Below are positions 1,547 through 24,424 of a stretch of 32,286 nucleotides of DNA, piece by piece (the stretch's first letter is position 1; every line of letters starts with the position of its first letter). A model generated the notes under the pieces. It saw nothing but the letters and a program-made list of their open reading frames with translations, made no database searches and had not been told where the DNA came from. Origin of the DNA: Basidiobolus ranarum (Eukaryota); assembly GCA_040143965.1 (NCBI GenBank), contig JASJQH010006959.1:1-32286 (forward strand), in the 5' to 3' direction. Position numbers and translations under genes: made by a program.

Positions 1547-1592
1547 CCTTGGCTACATGGTCAATCGACTCTAACATTACCATAGTATAACC

Positions 1593-3044
1593 ATGACCAA
1601 AGAGGTAAAGAACTCTGGTGATTCATCACAAGCAGGTTTCTCTGTCTATACAGTCCTGTGTGTTTCCATCGCTTGTCTCGTATCTTTCAACAACGGTTGG
1701 AATACCTCCGATACTAACATCATTCAAGCTTCTATTGTCAGCTGTGACAATCCCAGTGAGAAAGTGAATGGCTTTCCTCATTGTTTCCCCATGGGTGATT
1801 GGATGTGGGGTTTTGCTGTGAGCAGTTTCTCTATCGGTGGTGCCATGGGAGGTCTATCTGCGGGTTGGTTCCAAGCCAGATTTGGCCGTCGTAACTCACT
1901 TATTTTCAACAACATATTCTTTATTATTGGTGCACTCCTGCTCGGTCTCTCTAAAAATAAGGGTATGTGGATTGTGGGGCGCTTATTCACTGGTATCGGA
2001 TCAGGCTTCGGAACTGTTGTACTTCCTACGTATATAGGAGAAGTATCCACCACCAAAGTTCGTGGTGCCTATGGTGCTATGACCCAACTTACATGCGTCA
2101 TTGGGCAGTTAGTCACCCAAGCAGCAGGTCTTGGATTATCTAGTCCTTCTGGTTGGCGTATTTGCTTGGCTCTTACTGGAGTTATCGCTATTTTTCAATT
2201 AGTTACTCTGTCGTTCATTACCGAGACTCCTCGCTACTACATTTCTAAGGATCAAATCGAAGATGCTGAGAAATCTTTACGTAAACTTCGTAAAGGGATG
2301 GATATTTCAGGAGAACTTCAAACCATGATAAATGCTCGCGCTCAAGCTAAAGCCGGAGGAGAGCAAACCTCAATGATGGATGGCTTCAGGTTTATCATGC
2401 ACGATCCCCTGACTCGCAAGCACGCCTTCATTTGCATGTTTCTCTGTATTATTCAACAATTGTGTGGTATTAATGGTATCATGTATTACTCCACATCTAT
2501 TTTCACTTCTATCTATGGCAATCAGACCGCTCAGTATCTTACCGTTGGTGTAGGTGCTATTAGTTTGCTTTCCACCATTGTCACCATTCTTCTGATTGAT
2601 CGAGTTGGAAGAAAGCTCCTTGTTCTTTTGAGTCTTGCTGGTATGGCCTCATTCAATGTGCTCATGATTATTGGTGTTGAATGTAATGATTCTGGTCTGG
2701 TTATTCTTGGTCTATTTGCATTTGTTGTTTCGTTCGCCTTGGGTATGGGACCTATTCCCTTCTTGATTATCTCCGAACTCATTCCTACCAGAGCAGTTTC
2801 CACTGTTGCCTCAAGTGCACTTGGACTCAATTGGTTTGGTAACTTTGTGGTTGGATTCTTCTTCCCATCATTGAAAAACTCCATGCATGGTTATGTATTC
2901 TTGATCTTTGTGTGCTGTTGTATTGTTGGTTTCATTGGAGTTCTCTTCTTTTTACCTGAAACGAAGGGGCGTAGTATTGAAGAAATCACTGGTCATCAAG
3001 ATGAGGATATAACCACCAACCTATCTGCTATGAACGAGTGTTAA
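1593..3044 (+). CDS. MFS sugar-porter transporter, GLUT-like / yeast Vps73-YBR241C-like, 483 aa, intronless
   Basis: About 12 hydrophobic segments. Motifs FGRR, GR..TG.G.G, Y.GE.S....RG, ETPRY, QQLCGING.MYYS, DRVGRK, GMGPIPF and PETKG. Cys pair in the first loop (C...CFPM). Confidence 0.92.
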   Translation: MTKEVKNSGDSSQAGFSVYTVLCVSIACLVSFNNGWNTSDTNIIQASIVSCDNPSEKVNGFPHCFPMGDWMWGFAVSSFSIGGAMGGLSAGWFQARFGRRNSLIFNNIFFIIGALLLGLSKNKGMWIVGRLFTGIGSGFGTVVLPTYIGEVSTTKVRGAYGAMTQLTCVIGQLVTQAAGLGLSSPSGWRICLALTGVIAIFQLVTLSFITETPRYYISKDQIEDAEKSLRKLRKGMDISGELQTMINARAQAKAGGEQTSMMDGFRFIMHDPLTRKHAFICMFLCIIQQLCGINGIMYYSTSIFTSIYGNQTAQYLTVGVGAISLLSTIVTILLIDRVGRKLLVLLSLAGMASFNVLMIIGVECNDSGLVILGLFAFVVSFALGMGPIPFLIISELIPTRAVSTVASSALGLNWFGNFVVGFFFPSLKNSMHGYVFLIFVCCCIVGFIGVLFFLPETKGRSIEEITGHQDEDITTNLSAMNEC

Positions 3045-3235: not shown

Positions 3236-3605
3236 GAACCCTTTCTATTTTTAGTCGATCCTCTCATTCAGTTTGTTAGAGTTGTCTGAGTTTGGAAATG
3301 AATCATTTATTTTCATGGTCTAAGATTAATACAAGTCCAACCTCCGATCCTCCTAATTGGACAAGGTCTTGGTCTCCAATATATGAGCTATTGAGATAAA
3401 CCAGTGCCACTTCAAATAAGCTGGTGTAACCACCAAGTCTCTGCTATATAGTATAGAAAGTTGCTTCAAAGCGTTGCTATTCACCATCGTACTTCACTAT
3501 ACGCAACCTTTAAGGAGGCTTCAGCTCTAACCATTCATCTCTTCGTGATTGAATTCTCTAGTTTGTCTGTCTTTATTAGTGATCTATTTGACGTAGAGAT
3601 CACCC

Positions 3606-4190
3606 ATGCTGGAGTTTAAAACCCATAAAATGGTGCTTCTAGGTGATGGGGGAGTGGGCAAGACAGCTTTAACATTACAATTATGCTCAGCACATTTTGT
3701 AGAGACCTACAATCCCACCATCGAGAATGTTTATCGTAAACAAGTGGTGATTGATAACAAAGCATGTATTTTGGAGGTACTCGACACAGCTGGACAACTG
3801 GAATACTCTACATTACGTGAACAATGGATACGTGAAGGGGAAGCGTTTTTATTGGTTTATTGTATTACCGAAAGATCATCTTTTGAACGTTTAGAAGCGG
3901 TTCGACAACATATAATTAGTATCGTAGGCTCGACGACGGCCCCAATGATTTTGGTTGGCAACAAGTGTGATAGATCTTCGGAAAGACAAGTAACTCAACA
4001 AGAAGGCATAGCCATGGCTAGACGATTTGGATGTCAATTTATGGAAAGCTCAGCAAAAACGGCGGTCAATGTTGAGAGAGCATTCTTCACACTTGTCAGA
4101 GGGTTACGTGGGATATACTCCGAAGATTGTTCCAAACAGAAGTCAAGTGTCCCCAAGAGGATCAAGAAATTGAAATGCACCATCATGTAA
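3606..4190 (+). CDS. Ras-family small GTPase (fungal Ras2-like, divergent), 194 aa, intronless
   Basis: GDGGVGKT P-loop, PTIE, DTAGQ, NKCD, ESSAK, polybasic tail and CAAX box CTIM. Confidence 0.95.
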   Translation: MLEFKTHKMVLLGDGGVGKTALTLQLCSAHFVETYNPTIENVYRKQVVIDNKACILEVLDTAGQLEYSTLREQWIREGEAFLLVYCITERSSFERLEAVRQHIISIVGSTTAPMILVGNKCDRSSERQVTQQEGIAMARRFGCQFMESSAKTAVNVERAFFTLVRGLRGIYSEDCSKQKSSVPKRIKKLKCTIM

Positions 4191-4641: not shown

Positions 4642-5217
4642 TTAGTTGAGTCTCAACCAATCCTCTCTCAACATGGTGTAAATGAGATGATCAACAAATT
4701 GTCCATTGATCCATTTGGCTTGTAGACACCGTTCATTTTTGAAATTTAATCTCTCGGGAATGGCTCTACTTTTAAGGTTATCTACAGCACAATGAATCTC
4801 TACACAGTTGATCTCCAACTCGACCAACAATTTATGGACCAAATATTTTGTAGAGGATATCATTAATCCATGACCAGTGAAAGTGTCTCCAAGCCAATAG
4901 CCTAGAGTTGCAGTGGAGCTATCCCAATCAATGGTATGTATTCCCAAAACCCCAGCCAGTTCTCGGTTAAAGTAAACCCCCAGTTCTATTCCTTTGTTAG
5001 TAAGTAGTCGTTTTTCTGCGTTCAACACGAATTCCTTGGTATCGTCGATAGTTTTAACGAAATCTAACCAAGGTAAGAAAGCAGCCAGGTGTACACGTGA
5101 GTTATCAGTCAAAGTAAAAAGAGTGGGGACATCTTTCAGTGATAATATCTTTATACTACAAGTATCGTTTACTTGAGTAAATGAATGAGAAAATAATTGA
5201 CTGAGTGTTTTTGACAT
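4642..5217 (-). CDS. GNAT N-acetyltransferase, RimJ/RimL/YdaF family, 191 aa, intronless
   Basis: R.HL..FLPW, LGYWLG....GHGLM, IHCAVDN.KSRAIPERL.F and FVDH..Y.ML match the bacterial RimL/YdaF pattern. Confidence 0.88.
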   Translation of the reverse strand: MSKTLSQLFSHSFTQVNDTCSIKILSLKDVPTLFTLTDNSRVHLAAFLPWLDFVKTIDDTKEFVLNAEKRLLTNKGIELGVYFNRELAGVLGIHTIDWDSSTATLGYWLGDTFTGHGLMISSTKYLVHKLLVELEINCVEIHCAVDNLKSRAIPERLNFKNERCLQAKWINGQFVDHLIYTMLREDWLRLN

Positions 5218-5454
5218 GGTGGGTTTTTATCTTGGGTTATCTCAACGAACACAACGATTAAAGTGTCTTTCGGAATATCCAGCAAGGATATCATGTGGAA
5301 TTAACAAAGTTTGGGGTTGGAGAATTTTGGATTTAGCCGTGTTTTTGTAGTACAGACTCAGTCTTTTCTCATATACTAAGAAAATATGGAGTCACTACGA
5401 GTTAGAAAACCCACATAATATTAGGCTGATTTATATGCATATTGATGGTAGTAC

Positions 5455-6424: not shown

Positions 6425-7740
6425 ATGATTCTTGAAGACGAGAGAGTCATTAGTAACTACTCCTCCATTACTGCTCCTTTGTTAGAAAATGAGGGGGTAG
6501 TTGAATTAAGCGAGCAAAACGAGGCCTCGCGCGGTACTTCTAATATGGTTCTTGGTGCCAGTGTATTAAGTATATGCATTGCAACGTTTACACTTCAGAC
6601 AGTAAGCTCCAAAGACTCTCTTTGTTTGGAAGCATTTCTTATTCACTATACCTCGTTTATTGACAAGTAGGAAATCGCGCAACACGTTCAATCAGGAATG
6701 AATTATCAGAAGCCTTATTTTATCCTGTAAGTGAGAAGGTTTCCTAACTCATAAAAGAGAATTATCTCTGAGTGGTATTTTTACAATATTAACCCTTAAC
6801 TTTTAGCTGGGTAGCTCATTCGTTCTACCTATTTTTGATACCGCTTCAATTTTTGCTAAACCGATTCAAAGGGAAATCCTTTCGAGATTCGCTACAAGAA
6901 TTTCGATATAACGTTGAGGATATATACGGTTTATTTGTAAGAAAAGACGAAATCACACAAAGTTATCCCAGTAGAATTATCTATGGACACCTTTTTAGAG
7001 TGGGATTCTTTTTAACGTTTATATTCACGAGTGCGGCTTATCTGTGGTACGTTTCCATATCATTCACGACGATGGCGAAGTTAACTGCCATTTACAATAC
7101 TGCATGTTTCTTCGCTTATGTATTCTCTACATGGCTATTGAAAGAGGAATTGAACAAAATCAAGATATTAGCGGTATTTCTAAGTATCACGGGAGTACTA
7201 ATGATATCATTAGATTTAAGTGGTACTCCTGATGTGAATACTGGTGAGAATTCCACTTTATTAGGGGATATTATTGCATGTATATGTGCATCACTTATTG
7301 GTTTTTACGAAGTACTTTACAAGAAATATGCGGTACCAAAGGAGACTTCCATATCATTTGCCAATTTTTTCACTGGTATCATTGGTGGGATTACTTTCTT
7401 TTGCTTTTGGATTCCCATACCGATATTTCATTATTTGGAGATTGAATCTTTCGCATTGCCTGACTCAACTACCGTAATATTTTTACTTGCTAATGCATCC
7501 ATGGGTCTCATATACAACGCATGCTTTATGATTGTTATTGCCCTTACCTCACCCACCTTCGCTGCGGTTGGAGTGATGTTAACCATTCCGGTGGTAGCAG
7601 TCACTGATATGTTGGTCACTTCTACACCCATTAGCTTGGCATATGTACTAGGAGGAGTATGTATTTTCATAGGATTTGGTGTGTTATTATCTGCGGAATC
7701 CAGCAGTTCCAACAAGCATGTAAATGAGTTAAACCACTAA
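6425..7740 (+). CDS. EamA/DMT-superfamily (SLC35F/Thi74-like) transporter, ~388 aa. Exons 6425-6601, 6671-6726, 6807-7740
   Basis: GT-AG introns join the ORFs in frame (..LQT|EIAQHVQ..YQKPYFIL|WVAHS..). TAIYNT..FFAY.FS..LL.E, GD, YEVLYKK and LTSP..AAVG..LTIP motifs. About 10 TM segments. Confidence 0.85.
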
Positions 7741-7946: not shown

Positions 7947-8570
7947 TCAAGATTTCGCTAAAATCAAGAAAGATGCACGTTTAAATAATCGTTCTGCCAA
8001 GTTAGGTTGTTTACGTAAAGTAGTTGATTTCAAGGCACTTTTCAATGGTACTTGTGAGGATTCAATTTTCACTGGATCTGATACAATAGAGGAGGGGGCA
8101 TCTGGATCGTAAGGGAATATAACATCCATATTATCGAATTTCAATTTTCTACTTTGATTCTTTTCGAAGGAGATCTTTCGTTTGATTTTGGTAAGTTGAT
8201 GTTCTAATATGGTAGATTTAGGGGATAAAATCTTATTTCTACGTCTTTCTTGAATTTCGTAACGTATACTGGAGACAGTTGAATGATCTAGAACCGATAA
8301 ATCCAATGGTACTCTAGGGTCCTTTTTGATTTCTTTCATTAGTCTTTTTTCGTTGGCCACTTGATGTTTATCTACGATGGTCATGTGAAAGATCATTTCT
8401 TTCGTGGTACCATGAAGGATGTAGCCGTACTTTGTAAGGGTTTGATTGTGATGCATTTTGTATTTGTATCGGAAAAGAAACTGGGAATTATCTGGTGTCA
8501 TCTCCATATATTCGTATCCGTTTCCCTTTATCAAAGGGAAGAAAACACGTGTGTAAGGTAAGAAATTCAT
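7947..8570 (-). CDS. Hypothetical protein, 207 aa, intronless, basic
   Basis: ATG-initiated 624-nt ORF in AT-rich DNA with TATATAAA ~45 nt upstream. No family recognised. Confidence 0.6.
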   Translation of the reverse strand: MNFLPYTRVFFPLIKGNGYEYMEMTPDNSQFLFRYKYKMHHNQTLTKYGYILHGTTKEMIFHMTIVDKHQVANEKRLMKEIKKDPRVPLDLSVLDHSTVSSIRYEIQERRRNKILSPKSTILEHQLTKIKRKISFEKNQSRKLKFDNMDVIFPYDPDAPSSIVSDPVKIESSQVPLKSALKSTTLRKQPNLAERLFKRASFLILAKS

Positions 8571-9552
8571 TTGAAGTAAGAGCTGCCTTGGGAAATCGTA
8601 AATCCCCCTGGGTTTATATAGGTGAAGGTGGCGCTTGTCTTATACACTAACTGTATATATATATATCCTACACCAATGTATATATCACAAGATATCGATG
8701 ACGTTTGACCTCGAAGCCAGCACCCAACCAAGTGCAGTTTCATGCATCCTCTAATAATAGGCACTCCTACAAGCCAGTCAAAAATCATAAATAAAATGCG
8801 CAAAATTGTATAGAAAGAAGACAATACGCGGGAAATACACGGGGAAATGATCAAACATGAAATGATGTCTCAAACCGAGGTTGCTGGAACTTCAAATCAC
8901 GATTGATAAGTAATTTTAGGTGGTTTATCATCTAGACTTACTTTTAATATGCGAGTTGTAGGAGAGGGGCTCCATATTTGAGTGCTTGTATTGTAAGCAC
9001 GTTCGGAGCATGCAGGGTAATCTGAAAATGCGGGGATCGTAGTTCTCCATTCAATATCAGTTGGTGCAACCACACTCAACTGCATCGTGACTCTCGGTTA
9101 CAGTCACAAGTAATATCAATGTGTTTGATCGCAAAGCCAGCAAATCATTTACTTACATCTACACTGCCTATGAGGGGATGAAACATAACTACACTAGTTT
9201 AGAAGCGATGAAACACAATGAAAGAGAACCTGTTCCATGTAATCGATAAAATGGACGGGTTTCAGTAGATTCTTCATCTTTAAATGTATCGTGACCTTGT
9301 GAAGGCATCAGATCGTACCACTTGATGAAACATAATGAGTACCGAACATCCGAGCATTGGGATACTACACTCTTCAATTGTTTAATTAGGAGGAATGCAA
9401 AAGAACATGGTAGAGGGTATTGTAGTATTGCAGAAGCATCTCTTCATTTACCAATGATGGATATAATAGTATAGGCGTGGGTATGGCTGTGGGTGTGGGT
9501 GAGGGTGTATTTTCATGTGTATGCAACATAACGTCCAAGTTTGCAAGAAAGA

Positions 9553-11626
9553 TCATGATGGAACTGCGTACACTTCATGCACTTCACGATTGCCTTGACG
9601 ATCGATATGCTCCATTGCTTCATTAATCTTTCTGAAGAATCGATGTGGACCAACATGATCAATTAAACCAGAACGTGTAAACGTTTCCTTACAATTTTCA
9701 CGCAGTTTAACAAAGTAAACAATCACATCACGACGATGATAATCATCTACAATCTCGAGCAGAATTTGTGCTGCACTAGCATCGATCTCCGGCATATTAC
9801 CAACATCAAAGATAACGTAAGAGGCGGGTGCAATTCTTGGTTCTTCTGAAGGGTGAACATCATCATCACCAAATTGTTCCACTCTACGAAGACGATCTTT
9901 GAGTTGTCCAGTATTCGCAAAGAACAGAGCCTCTTGGATCTGAATCAATTGAACTCCTTGTACCTGTTCGGCTTCTGGATATTCCTTGATAGGTTTAAAT
10001 TTGTCCTCTCCAGGGATTTTCCCCATTATTAGGATCTTAGGTCTAGTGCTCTTTTTGATGACTAATAACAGCGATAGTCCAACAGAAGTGAATGTACCAG
10101 CCTCAATCGAGATTGCCATTGTAACAAGAAAAGTGATGGCCACCAATGCCAAGTCTCCCCAAGAACGCATATGGATGATGTAACGTAACTCTTTAGGTGC
10201 TTCAACCAAAAGTGACACTCCGGCTACGAAAATCAAAGACGAAAGGACCGCCTTCGGTAAGAATCGAAGCGATGGTAAGAAAAACGAAACCGCGACAAGG
10301 CCAATAATACCAGTCATAAAGCCAGAGAGCTGACTACGAGCTCCGACGTGGTTGTTTAATTTACTTCGAGCGACCGACCCGAAAGCTGGCCACGTTTGAA
10401 AGAGTGATCCAACGATATTGGCGATACCAAGTGCAACAAGCTCTCGATTGGGAGATACACTGTAATTGTGTTGAATAGCATATGTTTTTGTAATTGCGGC
10501 AGAAATCACGAAACCCATAATGGAGGTAAGAACGGCTGGAATCAAGACATCATGAATTCTACCCGCATCAAGAAGAGGAGGAATTCGGGGAGTGGGTATT
10601 TTGCCATGTTCTAAGGGGCCAAGGACCATGACACCGTCATCATCCCATCTGTAATGTTTACAGAAAATCGTAGATATAACACAAACAATGAGGAATTCGG
10701 GAACATATTGAAACCATTTGGTATTACTACGTCTCTTGAAGTATTGCATTGTGAACAGAAAGACTAACGATACACCGGATAACAATGCTGTCTGCCAGTG
10801 AATCTCTCCAATATTTTCAAGTATAAATAGAAATTTAGTAACGGTTGATCCTCCATGTTTACTACCCGCCAGTTTATCTAGACCCAATAGAGTAATTGAT
10901 TGACCGACAATGATGATTACGGCCAATGCAGTAATAAATCCTCGGAGCAAGGAACGAGATAAAATTGAATCAAGGAAGCCAACTCTAAATAATCCAAGTA
11001 AGAGAGTAAAAAAGCCAACCAGAAATCCAACCACTGTTACTGCTGCAATGGATTCAGCAAATATCTCATCAGGATCGGTCAAGTCTGAAGTCCTGATTGA
11101 GACTGCTGAACCAACCAGCATTGCGATAAGTGCTTCGGGTCCGATGGATATTTGTCTGTATAAGTATTGAAGGAGAGTTATATTCGACTGTCAAGACGAA
11201 TATATTTCAAATGTAACGTACCTGGAAGTACCAAAGAGGGCATAAACAATCAAGGGAACGCATGTAACATAAAGACCATACACAGGTGGTAAATGTACAA
11301 TAGCAGAAGCATAAGAAAGACCTTGAGGAATACTTAGGCAGGCAACTGTAAGGGCAGCAAGAAAATCCGAAGGAAATGTTTTCAAATCGTAGTTGGGAAC
11401 CCAGGAAAGACAAGGAACATAGTATCTCAAACGAGTATAGAATTTATTACTGTTTGCAACTTGCTGTTCTTGACTACTATTGTTGGAGCCTAAGATAAAG
11501 TTAGTACTAGAGACACGAAGGAGAAGCTTGAAAAGTCTAACCGTCGTATTGGTAACTATGCTGGGCAAAAGGCACAGTTTCGGAAGTGTAACTATCTGTA
11601 TCGGCTACACTGAATTTCCTTTCCAT
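9553..11626 (-). CDS. SulP/SLC26 anion (sulfate) transporter with STAS domain, yeast YPR003C-like, ~651 aa. Exons 11626-11542, 11489-11222, 11155-9553
   Basis: IPQGLSYA, YGLY, GTSR|QISIGP, NRELVALG.AN, FGSVARS, LFFANTGQLKDRLRR and STAS motif IDASA. Introns keep the frame. Confidence 0.92.
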
Positions 11627-12135: not shown

Positions 12136-13444
12136 GATGGATATCATTTATAAATGCGATTTCTTCTATATGTGAGCACAATTTATTGGAACAATAGAAT
12201 TATAATATAAATGTTAATTATATATGCTCTGGTGAGTCACCTATACGTATTTGGCAGTTGGGACTTGTTATTAAGCCAGACTTCGAACTGCCAGTAGAAG
12301 CTCTAGCATAATTCTCTCCTACACAGTGAATACCATGATTGTAAATCTCTAGCATTGTCAATGTTTCTCATTCACTAAATTTGACATGGTCGATGTTTCC
12401 CACGGCATTCGTATTAAATGATAGGAACAAGTTAGTTCAAAGTGGATACAGGATGTAGTTAACCTTCAATTTCACTTATATAGCATTTCGCATACAATGT
12501 ACCAGCTAATGTGCTTGTTAATAGTGAACCACTCTCACTCTATTGTTACCCTTGCCCCATACACGCCTTCTATTTAACAAATGGGCCTAGTATAAACAGA
12601 ATGTTCCAACTTGCTGTAGCTCCCACCCTCATAACAAGTTTAAAAACATTGAGGCTTAGCATTATGTTGAGAGGCTACTATTGGTGAACACCTAGTTAGT
12701 TGGATTTATTTGTTAAGTGGTCTCATGCTCATGCTCATCGCATCCCCACCCATATATTCTATTTGACGAAACAACCAGGGTAAAGGCGTAGAGCAAGGGT
12801 TGTAGTAGGTATTGAGTATATCTCGAGCTTATATTTTATGCAGATAATCATCGATAAGAAGCCAAGCATAATCTAGCATGTTGAATAGACTAGATTGCTC
12901 TCGAATGTCAGTATCATCATCCCGATTTAGTGCATAGTCTTGATTCTCATGGGAACGATATAGGCAGTGGAGGAAAATAAAAGGGAAAGGCAGAGCAGGC
13001 AAGAACAAGATAATATCTATCACAATCTCGGGAATTCTAAAAACTAGATGAAATCACCCGAATTGACCTTCTGAATGTATCTAGATCAGTTCTGGCCTTT
13101 TAAAAGCATATGGGGATTACAAACATACGGAGATACATGTGACCTAGATCTATCCAACAACAAGTAGACTAGCTATGACAGAATCTATGCCAGAATCTGC
13201 TAAGAAGACTCCAATAAGGGAATGGTTCAAATGCATCACATCTACTGTTTATTTGGTATGTTTAGTTCGTTGTCTAGGGTGGAAATTTCCTGTATAATTA
13301 AGAGCCACTATATTATCATGTATATATATCAGCTGGTTCACGTACTCACAGGTGTACAGTTGAAAATGGTATAATATATCGATGCGAATTAAGAATAAGA
13401 GAATGTAGTTTAGGATGAAGCTATAATCTTAGCCAGGTGCTTTC

Positions 13445-15004
13445 TCATAAGCGGTTTGGTAGCTAGTGATTAAAGAAATATCGTTCATTAGAGGCATATA
13501 CTGATTGGTGGTTGATGCGTTTATCGACTTACTTTACGACCATGTCCCTCTACAATAGTAGACGGAGCTGCGTTCTCATAAACAATTTGGTAAATCCCTG
13601 TGAACAAAGGAAACCTAATAGACAATGCCAGTTAGAATCATATATAGCATTAGCGAGGAAAATGTAGAAACTTACTCTTCGGTCATGTTCTTAGCTTTGA
13701 GGTATTCGTGGACTTCATGGGCAGCTAAAGTTCCTTGTAATTTTTGACCATTAAGCATCTCACGTTCAAGCTCATCAAATGATTTTCCAGTGATCACATG
13801 GGCTTCAGAAACTTTACGATTTCTACCACCAGCGCATGTAGTAATAAGATCGGCAACACCACAACTTTCGTAGAATGTCTCCTCTCTAACACCAGTCCAG
13901 AATGTGCAAGCAAATTGCTTCATCTCCATAAGGCCGATTCTCATAATGGCTGCTTTAGTGTTTTCACCAAGTCTAAAAGAATTCTAAAATGAATACCATA
14001 CAATGGAAATGGTGAATCAACTGTCTGTATGAGGCTTACTTTAGACCGTCGATAATTCCAGCACCAACAGCGACAATATTCTTTAAAGCACCACAAATTT
14101 CAACACCAGCTACATCGTCAACAACAGTAACTCTGAAGGTAGGAGTGTTGAAAAGCTTGTAAAAGACCTCTCCATCTTCGCTTCTGTTGGAGCCAATTGT
14201 AGTTTCGCAGAAATAACCTTCAGCTACTTCATTAGCGATGTTAGCACCAGATAGGACACTAACTTCAATATTAAGAGACTCGGCAATAGCTTGAGAAAAG
14301 AGTCTCAATCCAGTAGAAGAAGCATCAAGTCCCTAGAATCCGAATTTAAAATGCAAATAGATAAATATAATATTTACACCTCAATTATTCCACAAAAGGT
14401 AAATACCTTGATCAAAGAGATTGCCTTAGCGTCAGGTCTGATATTTCCGAGTAAAGTTTTACAAATTCCGTTCAAGAACTGAGGTTACAATAGTTTAGTA
14501 TCCAAGAAACCTGAAATAACGAAAAGTCCAAATTTATACTGACTTGATGAGGAACAACGAAAATCAAGGTGGTAGCATCTTTGACACACTCGAGCAAGTC
14601 AGGGACCGCAACAATACTTTCAGGAAGTTTGATACCGGGTAAATATCTTTAAAAATGTTAAGGTATAATACAGTTCAAGTGGACAAAAAATGCCTTCTAC
14701 TCGTTCTAAATGACTGTCTCTTGTGAAGTGAGAAAAGGATACTTGACATTCTCATGGTCGGTATTGATGATTTCAGTAAGTTTACGGTCGTTAACTATTT
14801 CCTCGAAAACCCACATTCTAACTTCGTTATCAAACTCAGGACATTCCAGGGCATTTTTACCAATGATTTTAGCAATAGCAGAACCCCTGTTTAGTTCAGT
14901 GGAGATTTTGTTAGCAACGGAAAGAAAATTAGAGGTCAAGGCCTCCCACAAACACTAACGCACCAATTTCCTGAACCGATCAAAGCGACTTTTTCTTGGG
15001 CCAT
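13445..15004 (-). CDS. GPD1: NAD-dependent glycerol-3-phosphate dehydrogenase. Exons 15004-14964, 14886-14743, 14646-14544, 14478-14407, 14332-14040, 13972-13676, 13614-13533, optional 13462-13445 (349 aa spliced; 347 aa with stop at 13521 if the last intron is retained)
   Basis: [66 protein letters not shown] and FPLF. All junctions are GT-AG and in frame. Confidence 0.96.
14647..14742 (-). other. U12-type (minor spliceosome) GT-AG intron, GPD1 intron 2
   Basis: 5' splice site GTATCCTTTT. Branch site TACCTTAAC (14665-14657) ends 10 nt before the intron 3' end. Phase 2. Confidence 0.85.
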
Positions 15005-15099: not shown

Positions 15100-16354
15100 C
15101 AAGAGTCAGAGTATTGCATTGAATTAGTTATATCGATATATTAGCTACTAAGCTCAGCTCTAGTCCGATCTTGATAAAAATACACTAATCGGAGCTCTAT
15201 CAGAAGAATCCAATCCTAATCTGATGGGCGAAACTTGAGAGGTTCGGAATAATCCGGTATGGTTGAATTTCATGATATCATTATACTAAACAGGTCTTTT
15301 TGAATGAATGGAACTCCGAAGTTCAACTTGGTGAACCAAAATGGCAGCGGTTACTGTCAAGTAGAGAAATGACTGAATGTAGAAGTTTCATAGAGTTACG
15401 CTTACGCTCCCGCTACCGAACCGACCAAACCTCGCTATCGACCAACAGAACACCAATCCTGTAACACTGGAGTACTGCATGGCGTTTGACACAAGAATTG
15501 GTTGATATTCATATGCCATAAGATATTAGCACATGCAGCATTCCATCTGACCTGGAAAAAAGAGCCTGAGTGGTTTAGCCATATGCAAGTCAATCAGAAG
15601 TAATTAATTACCAAGGATGGGGTGGTCCCAGTTGGTGCCACGATGAGGAAATCTAAGTGGAGATACATTATTTAGTGCTCCCCTAGCAGTGGGTTGGAAT
15701 TGTCAGTTGGACTAAATGATTACAAATTTCCAATAAAATCACCCATCATCGATTTACCCATTTCCCACGAAGTGGACTTAAGGTTTGCATCTGTCAGATT
15801 TAGAGACCAACTGCAGTTGCATGTGCAAATATCCGATCAAATAGCACTCTGGGAAGACAGTCAAGGCCAATGCGAGTCATAACCAGTTACTTCATATTTC
15901 ACAATATAACCAAAGGTATCTTCATTTCATGTGACGAGTTATTTATCTTGTTAATCTGCTCTAATAACCCTTAATCTCTCTAATTGCTTGAAATGCCTTA
16001 ATTGATTATTAACTTTGATGCTGATTAGAATATTAGCTTGATGTTAGATAATCAGTCGATGGCTTAATATATCATCGCTCACTAAAAAAGACTCATCAAC
16101 TTTATTGACTTAAATATGTATCGGGTTTCCACCCATCCAAGGATACTGTTTACTGATAGGCTAATGGAATGGGTCGTGAAGGATCGTCGTGTCACAAACC
16201 CATGAGGTTGCAAACAGCCTTTAGTCATGTCAAAGGATTTGTTCTGGCTTGGCTCGGCACGCGGGAATACAAATGTTATAATACAAAACTCAAGCAATCA
16301 ATGAGCGGTTGTTTGGTGATACATTGTAGCTTTAGCAGAGTAATCCACACGTTC

Positions 16355-19300
16355 TCACAAATCCAAGATATGATCTAACTGTTTTAATAAATCTACAGTT
16401 CGCTGTCTCGGGTCAATTGCTTCCATTGTCTCTAGCTCCCATCCGCTCCCAGAAGATTTGAGAGTGTACTTGAAATGATAGTAAACAAGAAATGTTAATT
16501 ACTACAATAAAACCAAATATGCACAAGAGCATTACCTTGAAAGTCACTTGTCTCATACAAGAAACGAACAAGTCCGAGAAATGATCCCATTCTGGTTGTA
16601 GCATAGGTAAAAAGAAGTCGTCTGCATTAGAGTCAATTTGCGTAATGTCTATTAGTGTTGTGAAAAATATCGTATAATCTTCATCATCTGTTGGTGAGGC
16701 TGTGCTCTTTTCATGCGTAGTATTTTGATCTTGCAGCCAACTTAGATACTTATCGTAGAGTGACTGAGGGTCTATTAGACTCGCTGTCATCAGAATTGCA
16801 TTGATTTTTAGAATTGGTGTTGCTCTATTCACGGTTAGGATAGGGTACACTTTTTCTTGCTTAAATTGAACAAACTTTTTAACAAAAGCTTGCAAGTCTG
16901 CAACCTTCAGCGGTACTTGTAAATCGAGGGTTTCGAGATTACTGTGTACTTGTGCATCTGCCAATTTGTCTATTACTTTGAAACTTTGGCGGTTGATACT
17001 TGTAAACCAAATCTGAACGCCATCATCAATACAAAGTGCAATGTCGTTGGATGTCTTTGAAGCTTCGCTCACGATACTGACATTAATAATAGACCCAGTG
17101 ATTACTTTAGGGGATGATTGCTCATGATACGATCCAGGAATAGGTCGTATACAGGGTGTGACAAGCACGTTGTGAGCCGAGTTGGACGGTAAACTCTGAA
17201 CACTTGCATTAGGAAGCTCAGCTCTCATAATTAAAGGTGTTAAAACGTAGGGAGCAGGTGACTGCGTCAACAAGTCGGTATGTGTTACATTGCTGTGCTC
17301 AGGGATATCCTCCGTGTAGGCTATTAGCCTTTTCACGTGCTCTGGATTTCTAATAGATCGGTGTCAAACATTGGTAGTTGAGTAGAAGTTGACATTCTTT
17401 GGATCACGTACCTTTTCGTCCAGTCCTCTATAGATAATCCAGTTTGCCTCAGATGAGCGATGCGCGTGAAAGGTTTGATTTCTGTGTCTTGAGTAACAGA
17501 TAATACATGAACATTACGTACAGGATCTTTTCGTATATACAACAAATTTACAAATCCTACAATATCATTCGGCTGAAGGTGCCAAAGTTAATGTGAGATG
17601 ATCAAAGGGTTGGTAGCAGAGTGTAAAGAATACCTTTAAATGCCCCGCTTTGCCATTTGTATTAATCTGAATAACGTTTTGTGAGCAATCCGACGCAAAT
17701 ATAGAGATGTCTTGAAGACGGTTATCTGAATGATTCGAGAAGCAATTAACAGAAAGCACAACCAGTGCCATATCAGCTTCTTGGCCTCGGTTAAACTCAT
17801 CAAGTTTAATGCATCCTATCGCTTCTCTAGGAGAGAATAGTGACTCAGATCTGGCTTCTGAAGAGATGGATGTTTCTTTCCAGCTAGTAGTCCTTGTTGC
17901 TGTCAAATGGATTTGTTTTCGAAGTGAGAAAGATGATATTGTTTTGTTCGATGCGGACAGTGAATAAACCTATAGATATACGTTGTTAATGTGCACTCTC
18001 CAGCCACATCAGCTAATCCAGACTTACTTTGTAGCGATGCCCTTCTAAAAGCATATCATAGGTGCTCAGATCTGGCCTCCATATGGTTATAGTAGCCTCA
18101 CCAGGATAGTTGGATACGGAGCAGTCACATACTCGTATTTTAAAAAAGGGGACCACATTCCTTTTATGCTTTGAGCTCTAGCATACAGTAAATAATCAGG
18201 AACAGATATAAATTGAACAGAATTGCTGGAAGAGTTTACCTCTAAGCGCTCATTGATTTCCTGCATCATTTCACTTCGTTGTTGCTCTTTGTTTTGGAGC
18301 ATATATTGTTCTAGTCGTACCTTTTGAGTGGGGGTCAAATTTTCGAGGAATCCAGCTGGATCAAGCTGATTCGACATTTCCTCATAAAGTTCCTGGCCAC
18401 TTTCTATGTTTTCGACATTTTTTTTCTTTCCTGAGGGTTTCGACGTGGAAGTTTTTTTATCTAAGGTATATCGATCCAAGAGGGTGCGAGCTTCTGCAGC
18501 AATTTGGTCCTACGAAATTGACAGTCAGTTCATGTTTGATAAGGACAAAAATCTACATTAACATCAAACCTGGTTTTCTCTTTCCTTTACTTCTTCATCC
18601 TTTGCATTTCGAAAGACTTTTGAACCATCTGGCTGAATTTCCATGTAACACATAGGATATTTGCGCATCACAATCACATCGACACAGGGGATGAGGCCTC
18701 CCTCAGCAGATATAGCACCAAGAGAGACCTTAAATGAGCTCCTACAGTATCCAAGCTTAGCATCCCATAGGGCAATCCTACAACTATTTGAAGATATTTT
18801 GAGGCAAGTGGATTCACTGACTTCTAAAGCTGGTGTTGCTTCAGTAGAGCCAACTAACTAAGTTGAAATGATATGTTAAGCTTAATTCTAGTGCAAGTTA
18901 TATTTCATATGCTTACTCGTGCGCCAACTATAGATAGTTTGTAACCAATCTGTAATTTTTTGGAGTCGATAGCCCGCTGGAGAGGTTTATCTATATGCGT
19001 TCGTAATGAATACCAACCATCGGTCAACTCAAGTACATACTTTGAAGGAGCTTGAATTGCATCATCTAAGTAAATGATTAATGTTTGTGAGAAATCTGCT
19101 TTAAGGTGAAATTCTCAGGGAAATAGGCACATCGTATACCTGTTACAGCTTCGGCTCTATTATTGTTCGTATCAAGGGATTTATTTTCAATTATTGCTGA
19201 AACACAAAGTACCATCGGCTTAGCAGGTGAATCATCCCGTTCTATTATCCGTTTCAATGCCGACCGATGACCGAGATTAATTTCTTTTTCATATCTAGAT

Positions 19301-22300
19301 AAATAGAATGATCCAAGTTAGAATATCTTCTACAGTGGAATTTGCCATGTCTTTACATACCTATATCGAAGTTGATTCATAACTCGCTCTGGAGACCACC
19401 ACTTGGAAAATTTGGCGGGATATGATCTAATAAAACTGGCAATCTTCCATATGATCCATCGATAATGATTCTCGGTCCATCTATCAGAGAATTGTGGTGA
19501 CTTGCATCCAAGAGACATCATCTCTTTGTGAGCGTCTTCAAATCCCCAACGATCGTCTGTAAATTTGGATTGGCTATCGGTAGTAGAGTTCTTAAAGCAA
19601 TATTGTGCTGCATTTGAAGGGTCAATATTCACAATTTCCACAGGGCTAAGAGACTGCAATTAGCTCAAAGAGTCCATTAAAAATGGTAATAAGAAAAACA
19701 TACAGATTGTGTTTCCTTAGCTCATCAATGTCCTTGTTCGCAGGATACTGAAGGAAGCTTCGCAATGAAATTCTCGAAGTAGTAGCTAATACAAAGAAAT
19801 GGAATAAATATGCAAATAATTCAAAATGTCAAACACCACAAAGTGTACCATTCATGTTAAAGATATCTGAGGAGCGCGAAGGTAAAGCCGAAGCAGAAGA
19901 GATCTCTTCGTCAGGGAGGCGGGTCATTTTTTGGCTGACGACAGGTAAATTGATGGGGGTTTTCGGTCGAGGCGACATCATCGGACTCTTGAAAGGTTTA
20001 GTCAGTCTCTTACGAGCAGGTTTGGGGGTAGAAAATTGGGCTTTGGGTAAAATATCTACGACATTCTTGTCGATAGGAGATTTCATAAAAGAAAAATTAC
20101 TGTCTGATGTATTATTCACATTGGTGCTTTTTCGAATTGGTGTTTTAAACATTGGTTTTAGGCCGATTCGACTGTGGGCTGGTCGAAATGGATGAGTGGG
20201 CGTATTCTTTGCGTTGGTTTCATACTCAACAGTATTTGTTCCTGTGAGATAGTACCTCAATATATTACTATCTTAACTACGAAAAGTGACAAGATTAACT
20301 ATTTTACGTACCTAATTCCTCCACAGAAGATGTGTTTCGTTGGGGAGTTGATGAGGTTTGGCCTATGGAGATATCATGTTTGGATAAATCCTGAGGATTA
20401 CGAGAAGAGGATGGTGATTTCTCGATATTTCTCTGCCGTGCCTCAATCGGATGCAGCACCTTGTTTTTCGAAAAGGGCGATGGAGAATAAGGTTGATTAT
20501 CTGTTTGTACTGGGGCTATACTAACTCCAGTTTTTTTGGGAGAAGGCATTGTTGTTGTTTCATTGGCAAATCCAATGTCGTTATCCAAAGGATCCAAGAC
20601 ATCCTGGTTGAAAAGTTCTTTCGCCTTTTGTAACGAAGATTCTGATGGAGCTGCAAGTTTTTTCCCAGTACCAGTCGAAAACCCGAGGTTGCTTAAAATG
20701 GCTGGATGATCGTGACTTGGCGATGTATTTAAATTGTTGGCTTCGTCTGTATCGCTAAAAAGTTTATATGCACGCTCTAACGAAGATTTAGAAGGAGTCG
20801 CTAGCTTTTTTCCACTACTCGTTGAGAATGATGGAAGTGGGTCTTTTTCGTCTAAATCATGGAATATCGATGAAGCTTTCTTCATGGCATCCTCAGATGG
20901 AGGATTCAGTTTTTTACCACCACCCGTAGAAAACCCACAAGTAAACGAATTTGCCGGAGTCTCCTCAGTACTCCCAGAGGTTTCAACAGCACCAATGTTA
21001 GTTTCATTAACTTTTTGTAATGGCGATTTGAATGGGGAGACAAACGCTCTTGCATTACCAATAGAAAGACTTCCTCCAGAGAAAAGATTTCTCTTAATAG
21101 GAGTATCGGCCTTTGCCGTTAGTGGAACATCTTTGACCTTCTGTTTTGAACTATCGGGTAAAGAGCCATCAATATTGTCCACCATATAATTGTTTTCATT
21201 TTTTGAATTTAGAAAAGTATCACTCATTACAACTTCGTTAGACTCTGGTGGCCGATTATTAGAAGACCCAAGGCCGGATCGAAACCCTGATGTAAATCCA
21301 CCAAATTTACTGACAATTGTTGCCACATCAAGATCATGAAATTCGTCTCTCAAGTCCTCAGCCAGCGGATTTGTAACGGCTTCCGAAGTCATACTTGTGC
21401 TTGGAAAAGTATTATCAGTATCATTATAATCATCCAGAGCTAAAGGATATGTCTTTTTAAGGGATCTCTTCTTCGAGCTGGTAAGTAATTCAGTGTCGGC
21501 CAAAGATCGCTTAGCATTGTTAGGTGTATTGATTCGATCTTTGTATGGTGACTGTATTATTAATTCACTATCATTTTCCACTGATTGTTCTTCAGCCGGA
21601 CCGGGAAGATCATTAACTTCATTAGAATTAGATGTAGAAATCGCTGGTATGGCTTCAAAAACCCCCATAGCCTTTCGTAGAGAAGCTTTGTCAGGAGGTT
21701 GCAGTCGTTTACCTTTTCCAGTAGAAAACCCCCCAAATGTCAAGAGGGTATTCTCCATGGCATTAAAGTCTGGCTTTTCATCGTAACTGAACAAATTATC
21801 GTTTGGATTTGTTTCAATAGTTTCAGAAGCTTGATCTTCCATCAGTCGTGGTTTCTTTGATATAATTGCTACCGGTGGAAAAGAATCGGAGTTGATTAGA
21901 CTATTGCCATCACTAACTCTTTTGTTTGTTAGCAATGTTTCATTATCACCAGAAGGTTTATCTATAGTAAGTGCATCATGCTCTGCGATCTTAGACGAGG
22001 CTTGAACGTTTTTCTGATACAGAGATTTGATTTTTGCTTCTTGTGCAAGCGCCCCAAGAGTTTTGGCTCGAAACATACTAGTGTTAGATTTTCCCACATT
22101 GATCGGCTCATTAAGTAGTAGAGCGTGTTCAGCCTCACGTAATTTGGTTTTATTTGGGAGAGGGAGTAATCGACCTGAGCCAGTTCTAAATCCCTTTGAT
22201 TCGAGAATCGTAAGGTCCAGTGGTGCAGTGATTTCGAATAAACATGGATGTTCTTCAATGGAGGTAGATACTTCAGTAGACTGCTTTTCGATCATCTCCT

Positions 22301-24424
22301 GAGGTTCATGTTGATCGCTTTCTACCTGTGTTGAAGTGGTCGACAATTTGACAGATTCGTTTACGTTCATTTCAAGCTCAGATACGTTTTGAATATCGTG
22401 TTGTTCTTCATAATATGTTAGTACAAACTGGGTTATTCATTCGAATTGTAGATAATACTTTACCATTAGCTTCATTATCAATAACAGGATCTTCTCCAAT
22501 ACAGTCTGAATGTCAACACAACATATATTATTATATGATACATGTGAGTGTACAGTGATTATTCTTACCTTGTTGCTTTTCTTCTGGATTATTGGTATTG
22601 GAAGCACCCTGAAACATTGAATGGTATAGTGAGTAATTGCAAGTATCAACGCTTCATCAACAAAAGAGATGGACCTTCGAATTTAATACTACTTCATTTT
22701 CAATTAGAGGTAATGGTGGCTCTTGAGATATTTGCTCGACATTCGCATTTGGACTCGGACTTGATGTATTGTGGGGTAAATTAGAGATGTCGCAGATTTC
22801 GCCTTCTTCATCTACAGTAAATAGAAAATTTAACACGCTTTGTTAAACTTGGCTGGCTATCCCAAATTGCTATACCTTCACATTGCTCCCCATCTGATCC
22901 AATAAAGTAATATTGTTAAACAAGTCATTGGGAAAGCTTCCAGTTAGATAGTAATGAGTTTTACTTACCACTTGGAAGGTCAGTAGAATCAGCGCTAGAA
23001 TGCTCTGAGTGGTTGGAAGTATTCTCAAATAATGAGGGAGAAAGTGACCGTTCGACACCTCCAAGATCAACAGAGTCTAGCGGTATAGAATCTTGAGAAT
23101 CGCCCTTTTCGTTATAAGGTTCTGTGTTTTCGCACTGAGTTCTTTCAGCCTCTTTTCCCTCAAACTCCAGTGGATTGGATGAGCTCATATGATCACTTGA
23201 TTTTAAAAGGATCATATCAGATATAGCTGGAATAATATCTCCAGAGGTCGTTGGTGTATTAGGTGATCTAGATGGTAACCTAATACTTAGGGTGTCGAGA
23301 GGTTTAGCTTCTTCTTGATGTTCTGTGGAGTTCGAACTACTTGATGAAGCGTTAATAATGCTTTGTTTAGTTGAACCGTAATCTAATATATTATCTTGTT
23401 TAGGGTTGTCCTCTGTATTTCTTAAATATTCAACAGGAGTTGAGACGTTATCCCCATCATCGATGGACCATTCTTGGAGCCCTTTTCTAGATTTTACACG
23501 AGAAGGCGTATCTAATGGTGACCATGGCATACTTGGACTATGCTCTAGACTTTGTCTAGACACTCCGCCAAAAGAAAATCGTCTTATTTTTGCGAAAGGA
23601 GTGGATACCATAGAGGGTTTTTGACTAATAATTTGTGTACTGTTTGAACTGCTAAATTGAACTCGTTGTGTAGGGGAAGATAGCCATCCGGGCGAATCAC
23701 CAAGGTTTTGATCCAAGAGTTTTGAGATAGATATGTAAGGTGAAAGGTCCTCGTCACCATCGTGCATATGCGAGAGGGGAGAACCAGGTATGCTATGTGA
23801 ATATCTATTTCGACTTGAGGTGTTTGAATTCATCAACACAGTAGTAGGAGTACTCGTTAGGCTTTTGAATTTTTCCGAGTTCCTTGAAGGTGTCTTATTA
23901 CCAAAAGTTAAATTTTCTACACTCTCCGGTGAGAATTTCTCATAAATGGGTGTCTTGTCGCGTATTAATTGGGTAGTTTGTTGTGTAGGAATCAACTCCT
24001 CATTGTCCGAGTTTCTAGAAGTTTGTAATCGAGTTGAAGGGGTTTTAATTTTATAATATCTCTGTGTCTCCGGTGTATGTAATTCTTCATTCGTATTCAC
24101 ATTGCTAGTTTCTTCAATCTAAAAAATGACCAAAAATCAAAGGTAATCTCCAATTAATTCCACCTAGTTAAATGAGAAAAGCAAGTATTTTAAATTGTTA
24201 TATTAAGTACATACCACCGATACAATCTGCTCAGCGTGGAATTTTTCGTTTATTTCTTTTTGTATATGTTGAGGCACCACTGACCACCAACCGTCGTCGT
24301 CATCGTCGTCTTCATTTAAGTTTTTATGACCTTGTTCAGTCCCATCGTTATAGAATTTTTGTAAAATAAAAGTATTTCCTCGGGGACATTGAAAGGAAAA
24401 GTTCCTCTCCTTTGACTGACCCAT
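16355..24424 (-). CDS. BRCA2: BRCA2/Brh2 homolog, ~2295 aa, 19 exons: 24424-24215, 24118-22969, 22893-22876, 22811-22675, 22608-22569, 22505-22464, 22405-20312, 20241-19849, 19785-19704, 19645-19361, 19294-19140, 19065-18917, 18857-18570, 18509-18240, 18177-18028, 17969-17634, 17572-17412, 17349-16536, 16468-16355
   Basis: Helical domain W..NHYRWIIWK and QLRYRYEKEI. OB1 RSALKRIIERDD..MVLCVS, LELTDGWY and WDAKLG. OB2 EGG...VDV..MRKYP, RNVVPFFKIRV and TIWRP. BRC repeats present. Exon lengths sum to 6888 nt, in frame. Exons 1-6 and 19 rest on splice/frame logic only. Confidence 0.92.
20605..22196 (-). repeat. Array of five clear BRC repeats in BRCA2 exon 7
   Basis: Phe codons at 22190 (FRTGSGR), 21728 (FSTGKGK), 20933 (FSTGGGK), 20828 (FSTSSGK) and 20681 (FSTGTGK). 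Each is followed by L..P....L/M..A..(L/I/V)F or similar. Confidence 0.85.

Follow-up and report, generated by a model that had tools for sequence, protein, structure and literature searches.

A probable last intron and a candidate peroxisomal tail in one of two cytosolic-type glycerol-3-phosphate dehydrogenases of Basidiobolus ranarum

Freitag et al., in 2012, are said to have described cryptic peroxisomal targeting signals type 1 (PTS1) in fungi, namely in the GAPDH of Ustilago maydis and the PGK of Aspergillus nidulans. Differential 3' splicing generates the PTS1 of these two enzymes as well as that of MDH2 in Yarrowia lipolytica and of 6PGDH in Candida albicans (PMC3798809). A different route is taken by glycerol-3-phosphate dehydrogenase (GPD) in Saccharomyces cerevisiae, where Gpd1 is partly peroxisomal through an N-terminal, phosphorylation-regulated PTS2 that is used with Pex7, and takes part in a redox shuttle with Mdh3 (PMC9549241; PMC3798809). 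GPD does not figure among the splice cases in the excerpted text of these two reviews, and the excerpts of PMC9549241, PMC9512073, and PMC3798809 describe no GPD with a splice-dependent PTS1. Here we analyze a GPD gene of the early-diverging fungus B. ranarum, located in a stretch of 32,286 nucleotides (nt) from contig JASJQH010006959.1 (hereafter the window), whose coding region ends in a candidate 70-nt intron followed by a terminal exon of five codons. The original prediction for this gene, which reported the fungal precedents and the PTS2 of yeast Gpd1 as the literature has them, held that the intron is optional and that its removal exposes a cryptic PTS1 ending in Asn-Arg-Leu (-NRL). Our analysis leads us to favor, tentatively, a simpler explanation, in which the last intron is ordinary and probably constitutive, and the very small exon behind it equips one of the GPD paralogues with a PTS1-like tail that is young and weak.

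The locus resembles the fungal splice cases in that an enzyme of central carbon and redox metabolism would gain a PTS1-like end only via a splice at the coding 3' end, with an unspliced or alternative form that is a complete enzyme without the signal. In those cases, however, two mRNA isoforms and peroxisomal import have been shown experimentally and the signals are conserved across species, whereas both isoforms of the Basidiobolus GPD are predictions, its tripeptide is non-canonical, and its closest relative has no such tail. With S. cerevisiae Gpd1 it shares the enzyme family and a proposed role in peroxisomal NAD(H) balance, but the candidate signal is a C-terminal PTS1; a search for PTS2 patterns gave no match in six Basidiobolus GPDs and none, over a set of 277 proteins, within the N-terminal 70 residues.

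An exon model, built from open reading frame (ORF) fragments and GT...AG borders, places the gene on the minus strand of the window, with the ATG at 15004 and the TGA at 13447-13445 (eight exons, 349 amino acids). The spliced product is identical to KAK9722094.1 (P0004 in our numbering of database matches), deposited as glycerol-3-phosphate dehydrogenase of B. ranarum. It scores well above the gathering cut-offs of Pfam families PF01210 (166.6 bits, cut-off 23.1) and PF07479 (159.2 bits, cut-off 25), the C-terminal Pfam domain spanning residues 193-339, and it matches the human GPD1L structure 2pla (E 1.8e-128) as well as structure 4fgw (E 1.3e-104), labelled glycerol-3-phosphate dehydrogenase [NAD(+)] 1, which we take to be yeast Gpd1. 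Across 45 aligned sequences the dinucleotide-binding motif GxGxxG (G10 S11 G12 N13 W14 G15 in P0004) is nearly invariant; K120, K204, N205, D259, T263, and R268, presumably the catalytic residues as given in the literature on human GPD1, are invariant and present in P0004. The protein is an NAD-dependent GPD, in agreement with the family assignment of the original prediction.

The elements of the last intron are listed in table 1. Its donor, CTAAT motif, acceptor, and the two stop codons all lie on the minus strand where the original prediction had placed them, as parts of a phase-0 intron of 70 nt, and both predicted protein ends, ...GRKVSR on retention and ...GRKLPNRL on splicing, can be read from the sequence, the spliced end being that of the deposited protein. 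The donor GTAAGT directly abuts the codons GGA CAT GGT CGT AAA (GHGRK), and translation into the intron gives GTA AGT CGA TAA (VSR and stop). The intron lies between codons and its length is not a multiple of three; the sole AG preceding the acceptor TAG would leave an intron of 32 nt. The deposited NCBI model KAK9722094.1 already removes it.

As a reference standard we used the remaining six introns of this gene, each of which is backed by protein continuity with homologues. These measure 61-96 nt, their donors are GTGCGT, GTATCC, GTCAGT, GTATTT, GTAAGC (intron 5), and GTAAGT (intron 6), and their acceptors are CAG, AAG, CAG, TAG, TAG, and TAG. The last intron has the borders and consensus donor of a U2-type GT-AG intron, a branch motif that at 25 nt from the 3' splice site falls within the usual 10-40 nt, and a length inside the range of its siblings, and judged by these signals its quality is at least equal to that of any of its six siblings. 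A window-wide set of ORF-bridging introns, comprising 2451 candidates without a donor consensus, was too permissive and was dropped as a standard.

Taken alone, GTAAGT is weak evidence for an intron when assessed by its occurrence in the window, which holds 22 copies compared with 16.8 +/- 3.65 in shuffled sequences (9 of 100 shuffles reach 22). At a frequency of ~3.4e-4 per position per strand, simple arithmetic gives ~0.2% as the chance that a copy coincides with one of the seven codon borders that separate the point where family members typically end from the first in-frame stop; because of this low chance, and because the gene carries roughly one intron per 170 coding bases (six others in 1.5 kb), we consider the last intron probably real. 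Alternative acceptors past the donor would yield tails such as KAPG, HLAKIIASS, and IIASS, none of which is PTS1-like. A sequencing or frame error as the origin of the extension was also considered and is unsupported; the family end is not restored in the other two frames after GGA. The database cluster of P0004 consists of a single member and contains no transcript-derived copy.

To place the tail among its relatives, we took the results of a search with exon 6, in which 3103 of 3288 candidate proteins passed E <= 0.001, and examined the best 120 of these 3103. They include six Basidiobolus GPDs, three each for B. ranarum and B. meristosporus, and among the matches listed P0004 extends eight residues beyond the end point of the five others, which end in ...SSIVEGL (P0005), ...PSTIVEGY (P0009), ...QAIVEGL (P0015), ...STLVENL (P0020), and ...STLVDGL (P0032). 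Most GPDs of early-diverging fungi also end at ...IVEG[L/Y], again eight residues before the end of P0004, where the nine-residue tail HGRKLPNRL replaces the single L or Y that closes its relatives. The tail is thus, as far as these alignments indicate, a lineage-specific extension. Counted from the conserved FPLF on anchored C-termini, 87 of 182 proteins have 24 residues and 19 of 182 have 23; P0004 has 32.

Phylogenetic analysis of 12 proteins recovered P0004 as sister to P0005 of B. meristosporus (support 82/84, identity 86.8%), with P0009 and P0015 in the same group (support 98/96). B. ranarum therefore has two GPD copies of the cytosolic type, P0004 with the tail and P0009 without it. The original prediction had named SKL-like ends in orthologues as a check, and here conservation lends it no support: P0005, from the one other species compared, ends ...IVEGL, and the paralogues likewise carry no tail. 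A metagenome scan for DNA of relatives recovered four loci at 52-59% identity, none of them from Basidiobolus.

A third type of Basidiobolus GPD is represented by P0020 (B. ranarum) and P0032 (B. meristosporus), proteins of 372 amino acids with an N-terminal extension of 30 residues. The extension is rich in R, S, L, and T, with acidic residues only just before the Rossmann fold, and looks like a mitochondrial presequence rather than a PTS2. It should be noted that the proteins of Rhizoctonia and Ceratobasidium in the range P0006-P0011 (596-796 amino acids) contain two GPD units each; they may be real fusions, or else neighboring genes in tandem that the predictor has joined.

The last 12 residues of spliced P0004 are VEGHGRKLPNRL. 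The original prediction had called -NRL a non-canonical PTS1 with basic upstream residues, and this stands insofar as the tail is basic and the tripeptide matches, as a regular expression, the relaxed formula [ACHKNPST][HKNQRS][AFILMV] (quoted in PMC12316961); it fails against the strict consensus [SAC][KRH][LM] (as quoted in PMC12960970). The residues at positions -2 and -1 (R and L) are canonical. Asn stands at -3 also in the dihydroxyacetone synthase of Hansenula polymorpha, which ends in -NKL. Human PEX5 tolerates N at -3 in one tested case, the change of SKL to NKL in EHHADH, which lowered the apparent affinity from 6.44 to 2.03 and so kept about a third (PMC6770196). A described parallel for the tripeptide itself is mammalian alanine:glyoxylate aminotransferase (AGT), which has the same non-consensus residue at -3: its PTS1 is [N/K]-K-L in 330 of 498 mammals, an identical NRL arose in several lineages, and the weak signal allows dual localization (PMC12960970). 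AGT is, however, an animal enzyme unrelated to GPD, and other residues of the protein are reportedly required for its weak signal (PMC12960970).

Upstream of the tripeptide, P0004 has K at -6, R at -7, and two glycines, with no acidic residue among the last eight. An AlphaFold2 model based on the 45 aligned sequences has a mean pLDDT of 94.3, with a mean of 47 and no secondary structure for residues 341-349; because of this low confidence and lack of structure, the C-terminus is probably free and accessible. As modeled, the tripeptide would sit on a free end behind basic, non-acidic residues.

To assess how commonly GPDs carry such ends, we combined the best 120 of the 3103 matches with the best 150 of 13,142 matches from an exhaustive search, giving 268 distinct proteins. 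Their C-termini were anchored on the conserved FPLF...Y.I motif, a pattern of our own; 182 proteins with an anchored end of at most 70 residues were kept, and 86 (fragments, fusions, and sequences without the anchor) were dropped. With P0004 left out, 181 ends remained, of which those with 26 or fewer residues after the anchor start were classed as normal in length. Among the 116 normal-length ends none has a strict PTS1 and nine fit the relaxed formula, whereas among the 65 extended ends nine have a strict and 12 a relaxed PTS1. Given the composition of the tails, a strict match is expected by chance at a rate of 0.003 per tail (binomial P 5e-13) and a relaxed match at 0.049. It should be noted that the proteins counted are cluster representatives rather than independent lineages, and that many are gene predictions.

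The strict examples include Atractiella rhizophila P0129 (-CKL), the diplonemid Artemidia motanka P0040 (-ARM), and sea urchins (-ARL), the remaining ones being metagenome or transcriptome proteins. With a strict PTS1 on 9 of 65 extended and 0 of 116 normal-length ends, the gain of PTS1-bearing tails clearly recurs in the GPD family as sampled by these sequences, and peroxisomal GPD seems to have arisen repeatedly by this means. This is in line with the PTS1 that has been inferred in the GPDH of kinetoplastids and diplonemids (PMC9512073) and with peroxisomal GPD in fungi, well established in yeast and with indications in Ustilago as well (PMC9549241). The Basidiobolus protein is like the kinetoplastid and diplonemid glycosomal GPDH (PMC9512073), P0040, P0129, and the sea-urchin GPD1 in having an extension that ends in a PTS1-type tripeptide; those tails, however, fit the strict consensus, which -NRL does not, and they are of independent origin, with no homology to the Basidiobolus tail.

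Pairs of forms that differ in their ends were seen in two groups of organisms. Sea-urchin GPD1 form pairs occur among P0273, P0275, P0276, P0277, and P0087: in Lytechinus, the end is ...HDHPEHI in isoform X2 and ...HDHPEHMFEPKKSGARL in isoform X1 (P0275 and P0273 being the pair with and without the PTS1 tail), and Strongylocentrotus has a form with the end ...HPEHM next to one with ...HPEHMFESKKSGARL. In an animal GPD1, a ten-residue tail that closes with the canonical PTS1 -ARL thus seems to be optional. A protist GPD is represented by two transcripts, P0148 and P0269 (MMETSP transcripts 39354 and 39353), that are alike except for their ends; in one of them the protein closes with ...VQKSKL, a strict PTS1 that is exposed, and in the other it runs on into ...VQKSKLNINEYLQ, which buries the SKL.

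The explanation that we tentatively favor begins with an ordinary U2-type last intron, which would be removed from most or all transcripts of one of the two cytosolic-type NAD-GPD paralogues, joining the five-codon terminal exon to the enzyme and so creating the nine-residue tail. This flexible, basic tail with its non-canonical N-R-L would most likely direct weak, partial, PEX5-dependent import of P0004 into peroxisomes. There the enzyme could join an NAD(H) shuttle based on the pair glycerol-3-phosphate/dihydroxyacetone phosphate, like the PTS2-bearing Gpd1 of yeast, while the normal-ended paralogue P0009 would supply the cytosol. Any division between cytosol and peroxisome would be due to paralogy and to the weakness of the signal rather than to regulation of the splice. 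Several points weigh against this explanation. Splicing of the last intron is read from sequence signals and the deposited model; -NRL lies outside the strict consensus, and the plant formula quoted in PMC12316961 has no N at -3. The relaxed formula is a weak filter, passing ~5% of random tails and, by chance, the nine normal-length GPD ends counted above, and 53 of the 65 extended tails fit neither PTS1 pattern, indicating that most extensions carry no PTS1. For AGT, signals outside the consensus are said to be needed without being sufficient (PMC12960970), and low pLDDT is to be expected in any segment without aligned homologues. The tail, finally, is not conserved: the B. meristosporus protein P0005, to which P0004 is closest, does not have it. 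Only two Basidiobolus species are present in the databases.

In another reading the intron is real and constitutive but the tail has no function and arose as a by-product: the B. ranarum lineage would have lost the ancestral stop, translation would now cross a nearby intron into a few former codons of the 3' untranslated region, -NRL would be there by chance, and the enzyme would stay cytosolic without meaningful import. The missing tail in the closest relative and in all paralogues, the distance of the species pair, which is well diverged at 86.8% identity so that the tail may be young, the many extended ends without a PTS1-like tripeptide, the permissive relaxed formula, and the departure from the strict consensus all fit this reading, which we hold to be a serious possibility, if a doubtful one. 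Set against it are the two canonical positions out of three in the tripeptide, the basic residues upstream on a flexible tail, the strong enrichment of strict PTS1s on extended GPD ends, and the existence of peroxisomal GPD in yeast and, by the indications, in Ustilago (PMC9549241). A protein that ends ...GHGRKVSR, seven residues past the family end and without a PTS1, would result if GTAAGT...TAG were a chance match accepted by the gene predictor. The scant enrichment of GTAAGT in the window would allow this, and the literature searched gave no account of the gene-prediction method used for B. ranarum or of how the deposited annotation was made; the exact placement of the donor on a codon border, the CTAAT at a typical distance with the acceptor as the next AG, the typical intron length, and the richness of the gene in introns nevertheless make such a match unlikely.

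The regulated switch of the original prediction, by which carbon source would govern retention to give a cytosolic ...GRKVSR form and splicing to give a peroxisomal ...LPNRL form, has the right architecture. The signal lies beyond the 3' splice site and both products are complete enzymes, with the intron following residue 344 and thus outside the C-terminal Pfam domain; retention brings a stop three codons into the intron, and the retained mRNA, having no junction downstream, should escape nonsense-mediated decay, so that even background retention would give some tail-less protein. The switch also has precedents in the four fungal PTS1-by-splicing enzymes (PMC3798809) and in the GPD pairs with and without a PTS1 tail from Lytechinus and the MMETSP collection. 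The splice signals, however, are strong, not weak as might be expected of a regulated intron, the arrangement is absent from the B. meristosporus proteins, and a switch is unnecessary because the second cytosolic-type paralogue, P0009, already supplies a tail-less enzyme by its normal end. We therefore regard regulated retention at this locus as very unlikely. The same low expectation applies to viewing it as one case of a wider rule, by which eukaryotic NAD-GPDs repeatedly gain optional C-terminal PTS1 tails; such a rule is hinted at by the nine strict ends among 65, the sea-urchin -ARL pair, and the protist pair with exposed and buried -SKL, but seems improbable to us as an explanation of the Basidiobolus gene.

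Apart from the GPD gene, several ORFs of the window have Pfam matches (table 1), and others that are long have none (7950-8639, 20307-22436, and 22964-24118). A 41-codon open frame on the minus strand (15160-15285, containing MKFNHTGLFRTSQVSPIRLGLDSS...) precedes the GPD start codon by ~150 nt and is also upstream of a TATAAATA at about 15090; inspection by eye showed no PTS2 pattern in it, and it is probably outside the GPD gene.

Table 1.— Features of the GPD gene and its neighborhood, with coordinates as positions in the window.
Feature	Coordinates	Strand	Basis
GPD gene	13445..15004	-	Exon model, identity to P0004, PF01210 and PF07479
Exon 7, encoding 27 residues; the family-typical end would come after ...IVEG plus one residue	13533..13614	-	
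Candidate last intron, 70 nt, GT-AG, phase 0	13463..13532	-	Sequence; spliced in deposited model
5' splice site GTAAGT	13527..13532	-	Sequence
TAA stop on retention (...GRKVSR)	13521..13523	-	Translation
CTAAT branch-site-like motif, branch A 25 nt from 3' splice site	13487..13491	-	Sequence
3' splice site TAG, first AG past CTAAT	13463..13465	-	Sequence
Terminal coding exon CTA CCA AAC CGC TTA TGA (LPNRL and stop), with PTS1-like -NRL	13445..13462	-	
AATAAA, possible polyadenylation signal ~190 nt past TGA	13248..13253	-	Pattern only
Sugar transporter	1575-3041	+	Pfam match of ORF
Ras-family GTPase	3597-4187	+	Pfam match of ORF
GNAT acetyltransferase	4645-5226	-	Pfam match of ORF
EamA transporter	6793-7737	+	Pfam match of ORF
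Sulfate permease with STAS domain	9556-11604	-	Pfam match of ORF
BRCA2 helical domain	19333-19659	-	Pfam match, inside long ORF series 16416-24118

If the tail is inert, the locus offers only a correctly annotated last intron and a short stop-loss extension. If it works, B. ranarum would have a peroxisomal GPD by way of a PTS1 on a five-codon last exon, not the yeast-type PTS2; an early-diverging fungus would then have come independently to the same peroxisomal NAD(H) shuttle, and GPD would join the short list of fungal enzymes of carbon metabolism with a peroxisomal form that depends on 3' splicing. The enrichment of strict PTS1s on extended GPD ends, together with the isoform pairs, may be the more valuable lead; its occurrence in unrelated eukaryotes suggests many separate origins of peroxisomal GPD through the gain of a tail.

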